Source of the DNA: Alphaproteobacteria bacterium
GTDB taxonomy: Bacteria > Pseudomonadota > Alphaproteobacteria > Rickettsiales > UBA3002
Assembly: GCA_037200745.1 (NCBI GenBank)
Contig: JBBCHK010000008.1
Coordinates: 12,999 to 76,998 of the forward strand
Reading direction: 5' to 3'
Length of the DNA stretch: 64,000 bases
Both the position numbers and the translations under genes were made by a program. The notes below the pieces were generated by a model that did no database searches, was not told the origin of the DNA, and saw nothing but the letters and a program-made list of their open reading frames with translations. Positions 15,459 to 51,492 of the stretch are shown here, in pieces; the first letter of the stretch is position 1, and every line of letters starts with the position of its first letter.

Positions 15459-16422
15459 TTATGCCAGCTTACGCCGCTGCGCTCTGCTGGGCGGGTGCAG
15501 GCGGGTGATGCGGACCTGGCGGATGCGGCGGGGGTCGGCGGCGGTGATCTCGATCTTGAGGCGCTCGCGCAGCTTCAGCACCTCGCCCTTGACCGGCACG
15601 CGGCCGAGGGTGAAGAAGATGAAGCCACCGAGCGTGTCGTAATCCTCCGGCGCCTCGCCTTCGCTGTGCAGCGTTTCGCCGAGCGTGTGCTCGATCTGCT
15701 CGATCTTGACGCGGGCGTCGGCCTCGAGCACTTCGCTGCCGACCCAGCGCAGCATTGATTCGCCGCCGTCGTCGTGCTCGTCCTGGATCTCGCCGACGAG
15801 CTCTTCGAACAAATCCTCCATGGTGACGAGGCCGAGGTGCCGCCGTATTCGTCGACCACGATCGCCATGTGGCAGGCGGAGACGCGCATCTTGAGCAGCA
15901 GGTCGAGGATGCGCATCGAGGGCGGCACGAACAGCACCTCGCGCAGCACCGCGCCGATCTCGAAATGCGCCCCGCGGCGAGGTAGGGGAACAAATCCTTG
16001 ACGTGGATGAAGCCCTCGATCTTGTCGAGCGAGTCGTCGTAGACCGGGATGCGCGTGTGCGACATCTCGATGACGTGGCTTTTGAGCTCGTCGAGCGAAA
16101 CGTCGCGGCGGATGCCGGTGATCTCCATGCGCGGGATCATCACGTCGCGCACCGTGAGCTCGCCGAAATGCATCATGTTCTTGAGCAGCGTGCGCTCTTC
16201 CTCGCGCATCGACATGCCGCCCTCGGCGGAGTCCTCCTCCAGCGCGTCCTCGATGATGGTCTTCAGCGTGCCTTCGCTCTTGCCGCCAAGCTTCTCGCGC
16301 AGCCAGCGCAGGGCGAGGTCGAAATGCGAGGCGGGATCGGGGGCCGGCGGGATATTGGTAAGGCCCGGTGCGGGGCCTGAAGGCTCGGCAGCGGGGCTTA
16401 AAGCGGCTTTGGGAGGAGGCAT
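15459..16422 (-). CDS. CBS-domain HlyC/CorC (TlyC) family protein, frame broken at least 3 times
   Basis: LTVRDVMIPRMEI..SHTRIPVYDDSLDKIEGFIHVKDL (15469..16422), HMAIVVDEYGGT (15575..15949), and the CorC_HlyC C-terminus EDLFEELVGEIQDEHD..DYDTLGGFIFFTLGRVP (15459..15821). Confidence 0.85.
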
Positions 16423-17904: not shown

Positions 17905-18069
17905 TCATTCTCCTGATGCCTCAAGCTAGGCCCCGCCAACGGCGACGTCAACCAGCCGATGGCGGCCGTCCCCTGCATTCTCGGCAAGGGCGGATTGCGT
18001 GCGGCCAATAATTATCTTTACCGTCCCGCCGGGTTGCCCTACGTTCCTGCGCAGACGGTTTCGGCCGTC

Positions 18070-18237
18070 CGGGGCGTAGAAACCCCCTGCTATAGCGGCT
18101 TTCAGTGTAGCCGTTACTCACACTCCTCGACCGCAGGGTCGGGGAGGCGTTAGCGTATGTCCAAGGCGCAAGCCTAAAGGCTGACGCGAACCTTCTATAG
18201 CAGGTTTTTCTAACTCCCCGATCACCATCGGAGGAGT
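18070..18237 (+). promoter_or_regulatory. structured 5' leader RNA (candidate riboswitch/attenuator), copy 1
   Basis: Nested helices read by eye. P1 is 18086-18095/18195-18204. Hairpins at 18105-18123 and 18125-18144, then 18147-18154/18180-18187 capped by a GCAA hairpin at 18164-18175. U-run after P1. SD-sequestering hairpin at 18213-18237. A covarying second copy lies at 51013-51180. Confidence 0.6.
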
Positions 18238-18239
18238 CG

Positions 18240-19295
18240 GTGCGCGTTCTGTATATCGGCAATGCGGGGCAGAAATCTCCCGGCGCGAACTATTATTCCT
18301 CGCACCGGCGCGCCGTGAACGGCCTGCGGCGCAGCGGCCACGACGTCCTGCATTTCAGCGACCGCGACCGGCTGCGGACGAAGCGGCCGCTGCCTTTCGC
18401 CGCGCGGCGCGTCAACGTCGAGCTGCTGCGCATCGCGCGCGGCTTCCAGCCCGAAGCGCTCATCCTGTGCTGCGCCGAGATCGTCACCAACGAAACGCTG
18501 GAAAAACTCAAGGCCGCCAGCCCGGGCGTGCGTATCGCGCAAATCAACATCGACTGCATCTTCAACCCGGACAACGCCCGCCGCTTTCGCGCGCGGCGCG
18601 GCTATGTCGACATGCAGTTCTTCACCACCGCCGGCGACGCGCTCGCGGCCTTCGCCACGGCGGGCGCACCCTGCTATTTCATCCCGCAGCTGGTCGATTC
18701 CTCCATCGACACCGGCCGCGCCTTCGCGCTCGACGCCCCCGCTTACGACCTCACCTGCACCATGACCGTCGATCCGCGCTTCGAGGACAGCGCGTGGCGG
18801 CAGTCGCTGGCGCTCGGGCTGAAGCGCAACCTGCCGGAGCTCGCCACCTGCTATCGCGGCTTCGGCGGCCATCCGCCGCTGTACGGCCGCGCCTATATCG
18901 AGGCCTACGGCAACTCGGCGATGGCGCTCAATCTTAGCCAGACGATGTCCGGCAACGTCGCATCCACCGAGGCCGAGCGTTATCTCTATTCCTCCAACCG
19001 CATCGCCCACATCATCGGCAACGGCGCGCTTGCCTTCATTCCCGACGAGTTCGGCCTCGACGAGCTTTACCCGGACGCCGTCTTCTTCTCCGGCCTCGAC
19101 GAGCTGACCGACAAGGTCCGTTTCTACTGGGACCGTCCCGAGGAGCGGCAGGCCATCGCGTGGCTCAGCTGGCGCCGGGCGCATGCAGAGTTCGACAGCG
19201 CGCGCATCATGCGCTACGTCCTCGACCGGATTTTCGAACGGCCCCCCGGCCGCGATTACGCGTGGCCGGTGCGGCCGGTCTTCGCCGCCGCTTAA
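18240..19295 (+). CDS. CgeB-like glycosyltransferase-family protein, paralog 1 (351 aa)
   Basis: Intact ORF with GTG start after GGAGGAG. The C-terminal segment NRIAHIIGNGALAFIPDEFGLDELY..VFFSGLDELTDKVRFYWDRPEERQAIAW resembles the Glyco_trans_1_2/CgeB C-terminal domain. The assignment is from memory of the family only. Confidence 0.6.
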   Translation: MRVLYIGNAGQKSPGANYYSSHRRAVNGLRRSGHDVLHFSDRDRLRTKRPLPFAARRVNVELLRIARGFQPEALILCCAEIVTNETLEKLKAASPGVRIAQINIDCIFNPDNARRFRARRGYVDMQFFTTAGDALAAFATAGAPCYFIPQLVDSSIDTGRAFALDAPAYDLTCTMTVDPRFEDSAWRQSLALGLKRNLPELATCYRGFGGHPPLYGRAYIEAYGNSAMALNLSQTMSGNVASTEAERYLYSSNRIAHIIGNGALAFIPDEFGLDELYPDAVFFSGLDELTDKVRFYWDRPEERQAIAWLSWRRAHAEFDSARIMRYVLDRIFERPPGRDYAWPVRPVFAAA

Positions 19296-19339: not shown

Positions 19340-20413
19340 ATGAGGATCATCTACGTGGGCAACGCCGCGCTCAACTATGCCGGCAGCCGTTATTACTACC
19401 ACCATCGCCGCTTCGTGAACGGGCTGGTGCGCGGCGGGCACGACGTCTGGTTCTTCTCCGACCGCGACCAGTTCCGCGCCAAGTTCCCGCTCGTGCGCAA
19501 GCGCCGCGCCGTCAACCGCGACCTCGTCGCGCTGGCGAAGAATTACGAGCCGGAGGCGGTGTTCCTCTGCAGCGCCGAGATCATCACCAACGACACGCTG
19601 CGCGAGATCCGGGCCATGTTGCCCGCCCTGCGCATCGCGCAGATCAATGTCGACGCGGTCTATAACGACTATAACCGCCGCCGCTTCCTCGCCCGGCGCG
19701 AGGTGCTCGATGCGCAGTTCTTCAACACCGCCGGCGCGGCGGCGCTTTCGCCCTTCGCCAGCGACCGCGCGCCCTGCTATTTCCTCCCCAACCTCACCGA
19801 TTCGGGCCAGGACACCGGCCGCGCCTTCGACCTCGACAAGCCGCCCTACGACCTCATCTGCACGCAAAGCACCGACCCCAGGGTGCCCAGCGACATGGAG
19901 CGCGAAAAGCTGGCGCTCGACATCGAGCGCGCCCTGCCCGGGCTCGTCACCTGCTACCGCGGCTTCGCCGGGCGGCCGGGGCTGCACGGCCGCGCCTATA
20001 TCAAGGCCACCGGCGAATCGGCGATGGGGCTCAACCTGACGAAGACCGCCTCCGGCGGCGGCGAATCGACGCTGGCGACGCGCTATCTCGGCACCTCCTC
20101 GCGCCTCGCCCACATCATGGGCAACGGCGCGCTGGCGCTGATCCCCGACCAGTTCGGCCTCGAATCGATGTACCGCGACGGCGAGGACGCCGTCTTCTTC
20201 GCCAACGCTGGCGACGCCATCGAGAAGATCGGCTTCTACCGCAGCAACCCGCAGGCGCGCCGGTCGATCGCGCGCAAGGGCTGGGAAAAAGCGCACGGCG
20301 AGTTCGAAGGGCATATCGTCATGCAATACGCCCTCGCCCGGCTGATGGGCCACAAGCTGGCGCGCGACTATATCTGGCCGACGGAAGCCGTCTTCGACGG
20401 CGCGCGGGCATGA
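19340..20413 (+). CDS. CgeB-like glycosyltransferase-family protein, paralog 2 (357 aa)
   Basis: Collinear with the preceding gene; roughly half of aligned residues are identical by eye. Its stop overlaps the tsaB start (ATGA at 20410-20413). Confidence 0.6.
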   Translation: MRIIYVGNAALNYAGSRYYYHHRRFVNGLVRGGHDVWFFSDRDQFRAKFPLVRKRRAVNRDLVALAKNYEPEAVFLCSAEIITNDTLREIRAMLPALRIAQINVDAVYNDYNRRRFLARREVLDAQFFNTAGAAALSPFASDRAPCYFLPNLTDSGQDTGRAFDLDKPPYDLICTQSTDPRVPSDMEREKLALDIERALPGLVTCYRGFAGRPGLHGRAYIKATGESAMGLNLTKTASGGGESTLATRYLGTSSRLAHIMGNGALALIPDQFGLESMYRDGEDAVFFANAGDAIEKIGFYRSNPQARRSIARKGWEKAHGEFEGHIVMQYALARLMGHKLARDYIWPTEAVFDGARA

Positions 20414-21054
20414 GCGAAAGCCCCATCCTCGCCTTCGACTGCTCGACGCAGGCGGCCGGCGTCGCCCTCCTCGCGCATGGGCGGACGGAGGAGCGCGCCA
20501 TCGCGCAAGGCCGCCAGGCCGCCGAGCTGGTCGACGCCATCGACGCGCTGATGCGGGGCGCGAACGTCGCCTACGGCGAGCTCGGCGCCATCGTCACCAC
20601 GCTCGGGCCGGGCAGCTTTACCGGCCTGCGCATCGCGCTCGCCACGCTGCACGGGCTGGTGCTCGCCGTGCCGCGCCCGGTGAAGACCCTCACCAGCACC
20701 GAGGCCGTCGCCTGGGACATCGCCCGCTGGGCCGACTCGCCGGAGCATTTCGCCATCGCCATGAACGCCGGCAAGGGCGAAATTTTCTGGCAGAGCTTCA
20801 CCAACGATGCCAACCGCCCGCGCGCACAGGGCGATATCGAGCTCGGAAGCCCCGAAGCGCTCGCCGGGCTCACCGTGCCTTTCTACGGCAACACGCTCGA
20901 CCCTGCCGATGCGCACTACATCGCCGGCCCCTCGGCCGCCGTGCTCTGCGCCATCGCCGCCGAGCTTCCGGAATCGCCGCTTTCGCAGGCGCAGCCGCTC
21001 TATATCCGCCCGCCGGACGCGAAAATCCCTGAGCAGCCTGCATGGCTGGCTTGA
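20410..21054 (+). CDS. tsaB: tRNA t6A37 biosynthesis protein TsaB (YeaZ)
   Basis: ILAFDCSTQAAGVALL ... LGAIVTTLGPGSFTGLRIALATLHGL. Confidence 0.85.
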   Translation: MSESPILAFDCSTQAAGVALLAHGRTEERAIAQGRQAAELVDAIDALMRGANVAYGELGAIVTTLGPGSFTGLRIALATLHGLVLAVPRPVKTLTSTEAVAWDIARWADSPEHFAIAMNAGKGEIFWQSFTNDANRPRAQGDIELGSPEALAGLTVPFYGNTLDPADAHYIAGPSAAVLCAIAAELPESPLSQAQPLYIRPPDAKIPEQPAWLA

Positions 21055-50536: not shown

Positions 50537-51009
50537 CTAGCCGCCGTGCTTGGTGCCCGGGTAGGCTGAGTCATCCGGATAGTCCTGGTCTTCGTCCGGA
50601 TGCGCCTGCGGCTTCGGTGTTTTGGGCCGCTCGACGTGCAATCCGCAGTTCTTCTGAATCCCGGCCTGCTCCAGCGCGTCGAACTCGCCCTTGAGCCTGC
50701 CGTACTCGGCGGCCTGGGTCGTGTTCTTGTCGAGGAAGAACAGCGCCGGCCAGAACAGCACCAGCCCGACGCCCATCACGGCTTCGTCGTCACCGGCCAC
50801 TTTGTCGTTCTGCGCGGCCAGCTCGCTGACGCGGGCCGAGACGGTGGCCATCTCCGCGCCGATCTGCTTACAGCTTAGAGTCTGGTACTGAACCGGTGAG
50901 GTATACTGCGCGGGATTTCGGACGAGTGCTGAGCACACCCTGCAACACAGGCGCTAACGAGTGACAGCGAGGCGATTGTCGCCGCTGGCCGCATAAGAGC
51001 TAGTCTCAT
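50537..51009 (-). CDS. putative lipoprotein, 1 frameshift after the signal peptide
   Basis: Own translation from ATG 51009: MRLALMRPAATIASLSLVSACVAGCAQHSSEI (lipobox). It continues in the frame of ORF 50537..50938 (QYTSPVQYQTLSCKQIGAEM..). GGAGA RBS. Confidence 0.6.
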
Positions 51010-51012
51010 GGT

Positions 51013-51180
51013 GATCTCCCCTAGGTTGGTGGCAGGGGAGTTTAGAAAACCCGTATTTCAAGGTTCGCAGTAGCCTTTAAGCCTTGCGGCTCTGGACATA
51101 CGCTAATGCCTCCCCAGCCGTGCTAGGGAGTGCAGTGACGGCTGCACAAAGACCGGAAATACGGGAGGTTCTAACGCCCC
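51013..51180 (-). promoter_or_regulatory. structured 5' leader RNA, copy 2
   Basis: Homologous to 18070-18237. P1 is 51156-51165/51050-51059. Hairpins at 51130-51147 and 51112-51128, then 51102-51109/51067-51074 capped by a GCAA hairpin at 51080-51091. SD-sequestering hairpin at 51016-51040. Confidence 0.6.
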
Positions 51181-51361
51181 AAAGCAGCCTTACGCCGCTT
51201 CGATTGGTAGGCTAGATGGAAAAAGAATAAGGCTCAACTGAAATGTGAGACGGGGCGAGATTGATGCGGCCTGCTGGCCGCCGCCCCTTCGGGGCTGCCT
51301 GCGGCAGTCCAAAACGTCTCCTGACGTTTTGTCGAAGGAGTTCTAATCCCGAACCACCCAA

Positions 51362-51409
51362 TCCGCCATGAAAAAGGGGAGCCAAGTGGCTCCCCTTTTT
51401 CATGGCGGA
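51362..51409. terminator. 48-nt perfect palindrome/bidirectional terminator that includes the tRNA-Ser 3' end
   Basis: TCCGCCATGAAAAAGGGGAGCC AAGT GGCTCCCCTTTTTCATGGCGGA. The core GGGGAGCC/GGCTCCCC is flanked by A and T runs. Confidence 0.6.
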
Positions 51410-51492
51410 CAGGGCGAGATTCGAACTCGCGACACAGTTTCCCGTGTACACACTTTCCAGGCGTGCGCCTTAGACCACTCGGCCACCTGTCC
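51403..51492 (-). tRNA. tRNA-Ser, anticodon GGA
   Basis: Manual fold: acceptor GGACAGG/CCTGTCC, D arm GCC..GGC, anticodon stem CACGC/GTGTG with loop CTGGAAA, long variable arm, T arm GCGAG TTCGAAT CTCGC, discriminator G, encoded CCA. Confidence 0.93.

Follow-up and report, generated by a model that had tools for sequence, protein, structure and literature searches.

Two segments of a 64,000-nucleotide stretch of Rickettsiales DNA (contig JBBCHK010000008.1; hereafter the window) resemble each other, which raises the question of whether they are copies of a single regulatory RNA and, if so, what kind of control it exerts. The segment of primary interest, copy 2, comprises a sensor domain and an expression platform at 51016-51186 on the minus strand, directly 5' of the ATG (51009) of a lipoprotein gene, while copy 1 of the same family lies on the plus strand at 18068-18239, upstream of a GTG start codon at 18240. 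We conclude that the element is very probably a conserved, structured cis-regulatory leader, and that it is probably a copy of a previously uncatalogued family of structured 5' leaders of ~150-210 nucleotides (nt) that function as two-state cis switches of the riboswitch type. A sequence-only reading of the window had already proposed a cis-regulatory RNA family from the conserved loops and compensated stems of the two copies, and this proposal is now supported by covariation over 46 and 67 distinct sequences. That reading drew the element too short at its 5' end, as the true start is at 51186 with a further hairpin (P0), and it missed a pseudoknot, a conserved alternative fold, and a frameshift in the lipoprotein gene.

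In a pairwise comparison, the two copies are 75% identical and their flanks are without similarity. The window has precisely two occurrences of a conserved 14-mer (UUAGCGUAUGUCCA), 51106-51093 on the minus strand and 18150-18163 on the plus strand, where 0.06 would be expected. Each copy also folds more stably than 200 of 200 shuffled sequences, with minimum free energy (MFE) z-scores of -3.8 for copy 2 and -4.8 for copy 1. The differences between the copies are largely as previously described. Helix P1 differs on both sides at 6 of 10 pairs, P3 is CCUCGACC/GGUCGGGG in copy 1 and CCCUAGC/GCUGGGG in copy 2, one G-C pair of P4 becomes A-U, and the P4 cap reads AGGC-GCAA-GCCU in copy 1 and AGCC-GCAA-GGCU in copy 2, all of which can be read directly from both sequences. 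The single U-A to C-G swap that had been claimed for hairpin 2 (P2) does not hold, as the corresponding stem of copy 1 (GUGUAG/CUCACAC) is no clean equivalent of the copy 2 stem. The list of nearly identical unpaired stretches was correct only in part, since several of these are actually paired: GCGAACCUU and GGUUUU belong to a helix that we call X, UUCUAA belongs to the pseudoknot, and the CCG in the hairpin-2 loop pairs with the CGG that follows P1.

The family itself was first collected with an exact-pattern scan that used a single genome for each species and returned 46 loci, 45 of which are clear homologues. Most derive from low-GC metagenome-assembled genomes (MAGs) of gut and rumen Alphaproteobacteria and from Rickettsiales MAGs, and several genomes carry 2-3 copies. 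A covariance model (R1) built from 27 low-GC gut-bacterial homologues only produced 48 matches in these first loci. R1, which contains neither window copy, recognized both far above chance, scoring copy 1 at 83.5 bits (E ~1e-19) and copy 2 at 69.5 bits (E ~1e-15; match at 51031-51183). A relaxed-pattern scan of metagenomes then yielded 94 stretches, and the 80 of these that were listed and searched contained 94 matches, including high-GC members similar to those of the window (L071, L055/L128, L114, and L095). The family therefore totals 142 matches so far; its members come from Rickettsiales and from Alphaproteobacteria of the gut and rumen, as well as from environmental relatives with high GC content. 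On the window, with filters off, the broader model R2 scored copy 1 at 121.6 bits on the sense strand vs 19.8 bits on the antisense strand and copy 2 at 111.7 vs 16.0 bits (match at 51031-51184), while neither R1 nor R2 detected a third copy in the 64-kb window. A scan of 2.9 million viral contigs gave zero matches. It should be noted that the pattern scans are biased toward the most conserved subset of the family, because relatives found by way of lipoprotein homologues change the otherwise "invariant" P4 loop.

None of the catalogued RNA families accounts for the element. At the gathering threshold, the 4227 covariance models of Rfam 15 matched only tRNAs in the whole window, and 15 loci of relatives likewise gave only tRNAs. 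With E values up to 10, both copies yielded only chance matches outside the element, and the best homologue (L041) gave only weak matches to its terminator (21.7 bits vs a threshold of 37). A full-text search of a literature library for conserved 11-14-mers and topical terms found no relevant paper. Fremin and Bhatt (2021; PMC8040213) presented 16,482 unnamed structured-RNA models from human microbiomes, and one of these could overlap with the leader family, many members of which live in such microbiomes; the main text of that paper makes no mention of pilins, lipoproteins, or Proteobacteria. Matching gene contexts are similarly absent from the main text of Narunsky 2024.

The sensor fold, which we refer to as state A, was assessed across 46 distinct sequences, and the pairing frequencies in this paragraph refer to that set. 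Standard pairs occupy 95.6% of alignment cells vs 35-44% when partners are shifted, 41 of the 53 pairs change on both sides, and 0 of 500 shuffles reached any of five measures. RNAalifold recovered the same helices and architecture from nine high-GC members alone. All coordinates that follow for copy 2 are on the minus strand. The P0 hairpin (51165-51180) pairs GGGG (51180-51177) with CCUC (51168-51165), being 95.3% paired with changes on both sides at 3 of 4 pairs, and its loop holds UUAGAA (51174-51169). The latter pairs with UUCUAA (51042-51047) in an H-type pseudoknot, which closes off the entire domain; this helix is 99.2% paired, with double changes at 5 of its 6 pairs (e.g., GC:23/AU:20), and also appears in the MFE folds of both copies and in the RNAalifold structure of the nine high-GC members. 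The hypervariable P1 helix of 9-10 bp pairs CCCGUAUUUC (51165-51156) with GAAAUACGGG (51059-51050), exactly where the sequence-only reading had placed it. Its core of 9 bp consists of CCGUAUUUC (51164-51156) and GAAAUACGG (51059-51051), a tenth pair (C51165-G51050) also being possible, and it is 98.4% paired, with all 9 pairs changing on both sides and up to 4 pair types per position. The joining segment J1/2 (CGGUCUUU) and P2 together occupy 51130-51155, with P2 formed by GUGCAG (51147-51142), a CCGUCA loop, and CUGCAC (51135-51130). The CGG(U) of J1/2 can pair with the (G)CCG of the P2 loop in a second, smaller pseudoknot, which is 97.4% paired (UA:31/CG:7 at one pair), while the P2 stem is 81.9% paired in an alignment that partly misaligns copy 2 in this region. 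The P3 hairpin (51112-51128) consists of CCCUAGC (51128-51122), an ACG loop, and GCUGGGG (51118-51112), followed by an invariant AG (51111-51110); it is 95% paired, with two-sided changes at each of its 7 pairs. In the P4 domain (51067-51109), a stem of GCAUUAGC (51109-51102) and GCUACUGC (51074-51067) supports an internal loop, GUAUGUCCA (51101-51093) opposite AAAG (51078-51075), beneath a cap (GAGCC-GCAA-GGCUU, 51092-51079) that is variable in the family. P4 is 98.9% and P4b 90.8% paired, with compensatory changes present. The P4 loop sequence served as the search anchor; GCAUACAACA and GGAUACAAUA replace it in relatives found through lipoprotein homologues. The fold is completed, 3' of P4, by a short linker, after which come the 3' strands of P1 and of the pseudoknot and finally the ACUCYCC tail. 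Three helices outside of the model, the P0 stem, the J1/2:P2-loop helix, and helix X (98.3% paired), still hold, although the alignment could not have been fitted to helices that the model did not contain. The leader accordingly has the conserved and covarying sensor domain that is characteristic of riboswitches.

A second set of pairings is incompatible with the first. In this alternative fold (state B), the P3 3' strand and the adjoining AG (GGCUGGGGAG, 51119-51110) pair with the tail (CUCCCCUGCC, 51040-51031) to form what we refer to as the switch helix, the equivalent in gut members being GGUCGGGGAG paired with the tail CUCUCCGACC. The switch helix is 94.4% paired in the first set of sequences vs 40-58% in shifted controls, and 97.2% paired in an independent larger set of 67 distinct sequences, with UA:29/UG:17/CG:14 at one pair. 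The GGGAG of the P3 3' strand and AG is invariant in a 44-sequence MAFFT alignment and was not a selection criterion there, as the locus members of that alignment were chosen on TTAGCGTATGTCCA...AAAGGCT and GGGAG was demanded only in the later metagenome pattern. Helix X pairs AACC (51065-51062) with GGUU (51051-51048), or GUCAU with AUGAU in gut members, and encloses the P1 3' strand as an alternative to P1. Among the 67 sequences it is 98% paired and covaries (UA:45/CG:14/AU:3; AU:57/CG:3). State B overall is 97.7% paired, whereas its shifted controls reach 23-54%; the switch helix and X each show U-A to C-G exchanges, and when the switch helix was forced in fold predictions, helix X appeared spontaneously. 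By geometry, helix X and the 9-bp P1 should be mutually exclusive, because the linker from the P1 3' strand to the X 3' strand is only 0-1 nt. We considered X as a pseudoknot formed alongside P1 and rejected it on the basis of this linker and the emergence of X in the forced alternative fold. State B is accordingly modeled as a three-way junction of the switch helix, P4, and X. Our main argument for a genuine switch is that evolution has kept both P1 and X as well as both P3 and the switch helix, such that mutually exclusive pairings overlap the sensor within the expression platform, as in riboswitches.

The tail that is contested between these folds leads into one of two types of expression platform. 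Of 106 distinct instances of the element, 85 are directly followed by a canonical intrinsic terminator, and for 81 of these the distance from the first base of the ACUCYCC tail to the onset of the T-run is 27-34 nt. The 5' arm of the terminator opens with the final bases of the switch-helix partner (GACC ACC...), and terminators with an interrupted U-run are present in several of the other 21 instances. Six high-GC members (both window copies, L028, L095, L146, and L143), assigned partly by eye, instead have a hairpin between the tail and the ribosome-binding site (RBS). In copy 2, the tail serves as an anti-Shine-Dalgarno (anti-SD) strand at 51031-51040 that can pair either with the P3 3' strand and AG or with the RBS (AGGGGAG, 51022-51016) of the lipoprotein gene, the start codon of which is read from the sequence as ATG at 51009-51007. 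The sequestering hairpin (51040-51034 with 51022-51016) is present in the MFE fold, in agreement with the earlier description of an SD-burying hairpin at 51016-51040 (CUCCCCU, an 11-nt loop, and AGGGGAG). By eye, a like pairing of anti-SD and SD is found in copy 1 (CUCCCCGAU ... AUCGGAGGAG), L028, L095, L146, and L143.

The simplest logic consistent with these pairings, and one that we regard as likely, is a two-state OFF switch in which stabilization of the sensor fold, the presumed bound state, turns the gene off. In state A, the P0 hairpin, the P0-loop pseudoknot, P1, P2 with its small pseudoknot, P3, and P4 would all form and leave the CUCYCC tail free; in most relatives the free tail would complete the intrinsic terminator, and in the window it would pair with the RBS, with the gene OFF in both situations. 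In state B, the P3 3' strand and AG would capture the tail, P1 would open with its 3' strand caught in the loop of hairpin X, and P4 would stay in place, so that the anti-SD or the terminator base is engaged and expression is ON. Repression would therefore result from any effector that stabilizes state A. This effector could well be a small molecule, which we consider somewhat short of probable. One additional feature was observed upstream of the fold: in gut-MAG loci, the ~10 nt 5' of P0 (…AAGGUGCGG) tend to complement the terminator 5' arm (CCACCUU), with matched energies of -6.30 kcal/mol vs -5.47 kcal/mol for permuted partners (1/1000), a comparison that is confounded by relatedness. As a hint only, this segment may provide a further antiterminator pairing or belong to an upstream hairpin resembling the terminator arm.

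In nearly all copies of the family, a gene on the same strand begins 15-110 nt downstream, and a co-oriented open reading frame (ORF) with an RBS follows in ~44 of 47 and 81 of 94 matches. By eye, TTGACC-N17-TATTAT is found 25-35 nt upstream of the element in both L071 and L114. The family is consequently located in 5' untranslated regions (UTRs) co-oriented with the genes it would control, as expected for riboswitches, with two exceptions (L014 and L022) that are discussed below. The downstream products include small lipoproteins, including Lambda_Bor, many prepilin-type pilins, flagellin, glycosyltransferases (GT2, Gly_transf_sug, and Glyco_trans_1_2), and a large secreted Cthe_2159-domain protein. 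Others include TM2, DUF6150, DUF6804, YpsA-SLOG, an XRE regulator, MatE, and ankyrin and MORN repeat proteins, as well as DNA enzymes (SNase and PD-(D/E)XK nucleases, and N6_N4 and EcoRI-type DNA methylases), with gatB (a single case, L076) and possibly gyrA as outliers. NCBIfam gave only weak prepilin signals on ten of the downstream proteins. The regulon is one of surface, motility, and accessory genes, not a metabolic pathway. The cell-envelope regulon suggested by the sequence-only reading is thus partly borne out, since lipoproteins, pilins, flagellin, and glycosyltransferases are common, yet methylases, nucleases, XRE, SLOG, ankyrin, and MORN proteins are present as well. A T-box or ribosomal-protein leader was rejected on the same grounds, as the downstream genes encode lipoproteins, pilins, glycosyltransferases, and methylases in place of the aminoacyl-tRNA, amino-acid, or ribosomal protein genes that such leaders precede, and gatB is an outlier. 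Within the window, copy 1 precedes two paralogous Glyco_trans_1_2 (CgeB-like) genes at 18240-19295 and 19340-20413 and tsaB at 20410-21054, all on the plus strand, with Pfam PF13524 found on the product of the gene starting at GTG 18240. Given their tight spacing and overlap, these genes probably form one operon. The leader ties two otherwise unrelated units of this genome, the glycosyltransferase-tsaB operon and the lipoprotein gene, into a single regulon.

The composition of the regulon (surface, motility, and accessory genes) and the several leader copies in each genome hint at a signal of global reach, for which a nucleotide second messenger would be one example. We tentatively propose a new riboswitch class for an intracellular signal of this sort, which would turn these genes OFF together, as a single regulon, in Alphaproteobacteria from gut commensals to Rickettsiales. 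The leader is functionally most like a riboswitch-type attenuator or translational switch, while lying outside every catalogued family. With terminating and translation-blocking riboswitches, such as SAM-I and the fluoride riboswitch with its pseudoknotted aptamer and terminator, it shares a multi-helix, pseudoknotted sensor in the 5' UTR. More generally, it has in common with riboswitches a closing P1 whose 3' strand also serves an alternative hairpin, a platform that is either a terminator or an RBS-burying hairpin depending upon lineage, and covariation in both exclusive folds. It differs in matching none of the 4227 Rfam 15 families, in a switch that uses the 3' strand of the internal P3 and not P1 alone, and in a non-metabolic regulon. 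The c-di-GMP-I and c-di-GMP-II (GEMM) riboswitches occur several per genome, before pilin, flagellar, surface-protein, and polysaccharide genes as well as some mobile-element genes. The regulon of the leader resembles theirs, which provides a lead for ligand choice and not evidence. The leader nevertheless differs from them in architecture and, in both copies and L041, matches neither Rfam model at E values up to 10. Furthermore, all of its copies appear to have one polarity, whereas c-di-GMP usually drives motility and adhesion genes in opposite directions. JUMPstart/ops (RfaH) and LoaP/EAR leaders are similarly found before unrelated surface-structure and horizontally acquired operons, a likeness that is again a lead, here for the choice of factors, and not evidence. 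Those elements are short or act upon polymerase processivity over long operons, whereas the leader is a large covarying fold with its own adjacent terminator and an explicit antiterminator pairing; the JUMPstart and EAR Rfam families did not match it.

Several observations weigh against a two-state riboswitch. Nearest-neighbor energies favor state A by 8-15 kcal/mol without ligand, and therefore state B would need a kinetic, co-transcriptional choice or a helper factor. The 5' GGGG could pair with the tail, a pairing preferred by RNAalifold in the nine high-GC members; the RBS would then be free in the folded state and the logic of the translational versions inverted. This GGAG/GGGG:tail pairing is sterically feasible and possible in 90% of alignment cells, but it has no covariation support and 19 of 500 shuffles are as good, and we do not claim it. 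Some relatives carry a different P4 loop in place of the conserved one, and the downstream genes share no common metabolic theme that would name a ligand. Consensus promoter scans found nothing upstream of either window copy, and a consensus terminator scan around both copies was likewise empty. Lastly, the copies at L014 2965-3161 and L022 2345-2545 (Rickettsiaceae MAG) lie between convergent genes without a downstream ORF and may be free small RNAs or relics.

Other explanations of the same data differ mainly in what the RNA responds to, or in whether it regulates in cis at all. The most substantial of these retains the RNA and its two states and assigns the role of effector to a protein or another macromolecule, such as a dedicated antiterminator, a NusG/RfaH-type paralogue, a global RNA-binding protein, or a trans-acting RNA, by which surface and accessory genes would be marked as one regulon. 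The unrelated and often horizontally acquired genes of the regulon (Bor lipoprotein, methylases, nucleases, IS1595 transposase, pilins, and ankyrin proteins) are more RfaH/LoaP-like than metabolite-like, the strong thermodynamic preference for state A makes an opening factor plausible, and variants retain the scaffold and switch helix even though their P4 core is replaced. We still consider a macromolecular effector rather unlikely, as long near-invariant junctions and loops and two pseudoknots have been kept from Rickettsiales to high-GC free-living relatives, which is typical of small-molecule aptamers, and no candidate protein gene was noted beside the element in the loci with listed flanking genes. 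Far less probable is a stand-alone small RNA, whether a decoy or a trans regulator freed by the terminator, for which control of the downstream gene is secondary. The adjacent terminator would indeed release an RNA of ~200-230 nt and L014 and L022 have no ORF to control, but the great majority of copies have a consistent orientation and distance to the start codon, the antiterminator pairing covaries, and the window copies lack a terminator and have instead an RBS-burying hairpin, which is sensible only in cis.

Two further proposals would remove the regulatory role entirely. Self-cleaving RNAs also occur in several copies beside unrelated genes, and a ribozyme or other catalytic RNA located in 5' UTRs by chance would be consistent with several copies per genome, unrelated neighbors, pseudoknots, and a highly conserved internal loop. 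However, no known ribozyme family of Rfam 15 matches, and the orientation, the terminator or SD platform, and the conserved exclusive second fold all point to regulation, which makes a catalytic RNA extremely improbable. The idea that the window copies stem from a recent segmental duplication, or are ends of a mobile repeat with coincidental compensatory changes, could appeal to the presence of two copies within 33 kb, to the tRNA-Ser gene that adjoins copy 2, and to the mobile-element contexts in which homologues of its lipoprotein gene are often found. We view this idea as already refuted. The copies are only 75% identical without flanking similarity, a model from other bacterial orders recognizes both, homologues exist in distant Alphaproteobacteria, and compensation holds over 46 and 67 distinct sequences, which together rule out a recent duplication. 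A mobile repeat of the repetitive extragenic palindrome or miniature inverted-repeat transposable element type (REP/MITE-like), or a phage element, is contradicted by consistent orientation and spacing, an unambiguous strand, the absence of viral matches, and a count of only two in the 64-kb window. No transposase linkage and no terminal repeats were noted, except for one degenerate copy before an IS1595 gene.

The family is of interest for several reasons. To our knowledge, large orphan riboswitch candidates with such strong covariation are now rare, and the signals or pathways uncovered by those solved to date have in every case been unexpected. The family spans Rickettsiales, free-living relatives, and poorly studied Alphaproteobacteria of the gut and rumen, most of them uncultured. 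In these organisms the leader precedes determinants of the cell surface, namely genes for pilins, flagellin, lipoproteins, and glycosyltransferases, and knowing its effector would reveal a signal that governs surface and accessory genes globally. Because both alternative folds have covariation support, the leader is also a good model for studies of co-transcriptional switching.

A number of divergent relatives were encountered as well. In human-gut contigs, two leaders converge upon a ~760-nt segment with two small convergent genes encoding an XRE-type helix-turn-helix protein and an 80-88-aa protein (L079 8980-10103; also L049, L052, L060, L065-L067, L074, L077, L082, L089, L100, L112, and L126). 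One leader of each pair is canonical and the other has its P4 domain swapped for a plain hairpin (GCCCUGAGGUAACGACGGGC). Ahead of a pilin gene, a very divergent relative (22 bits) at L107 1322-1478 (+) retains a terminator and the P0 pseudoknot, P1, and helix X, but differs in its core and in its switch pairing (GCGGAUG with CAUCCGC). At L143 827-972 (+), a degenerate copy (16.9 bits) without the CUCCCC tail lies ~45 nt upstream of an IS1595-family transposase gene and 1.3 kb from the canonical copy that precedes a lipoprotein homologue. Under the proposal of a riboswitch for a global signal, these replaced-core variants (the L079:8980-9164 group, L107:1322-1478, and L143) could conceivably represent sister classes with other specificities on the same scaffold.

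The lipoprotein gene controlled by copy 2 (50537-51009, minus strand; ~145 aa, lipobox LSLVSAC) has a frame that is broken near 50917. The ORF from ATG 51009 encodes a lipoprotein signal peptide and stops after 44 codons, and the ORFs at 50875-51009 and 50537-50938 are in different frames. Homologues read ...HSSEIPAQY(V/I)SPVQY... in one frame, and because they keep one frame there, we infer that a single base is missing near 50917 (CCGGCG to CCGCG), either through a real frameshift or an assembly error. The public annotation covers only the 104-aa C-terminal part of the protein (P0001). The lipoprotein family has at least 808 homologues of ~145 aa. The same leader precedes two of them that are 82% and 70% identical (L143 at 48 bits and L146 at 73 bits), and thus members of this family follow the leader in three different genomes, while four more distant homologues are without it. 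BLASTP detected no significant similarity between the window lipoprotein and a gut-MAG lipoprotein downstream of the motif. The homologues are often found among mobile-element genes (WYL, Prim-Pol, ArdC, SNF2 helicase, N6_N4 methylase, and SNase; L144, L146, and L147), and the family may be cargo of integrative elements. Elsewhere in the window, a CBS/CorC-type gene by ybeY and phoH (15459-16422, minus strand) also appears to be split over two or three frames, which suggests assembly indel errors and not true pseudogenes. Upstream of copy 2, a tRNA-Ser(GGA) in the 51370-51492 (-) region is followed by a perfect hairpin (AAAAAGGGGAGCC-ACUU-GGCUCCCCUUUUU) ~185 nt from the leader, which looks like a bidirectional terminator and was presumably missed by the consensus scan as its stem absorbs the T-run.

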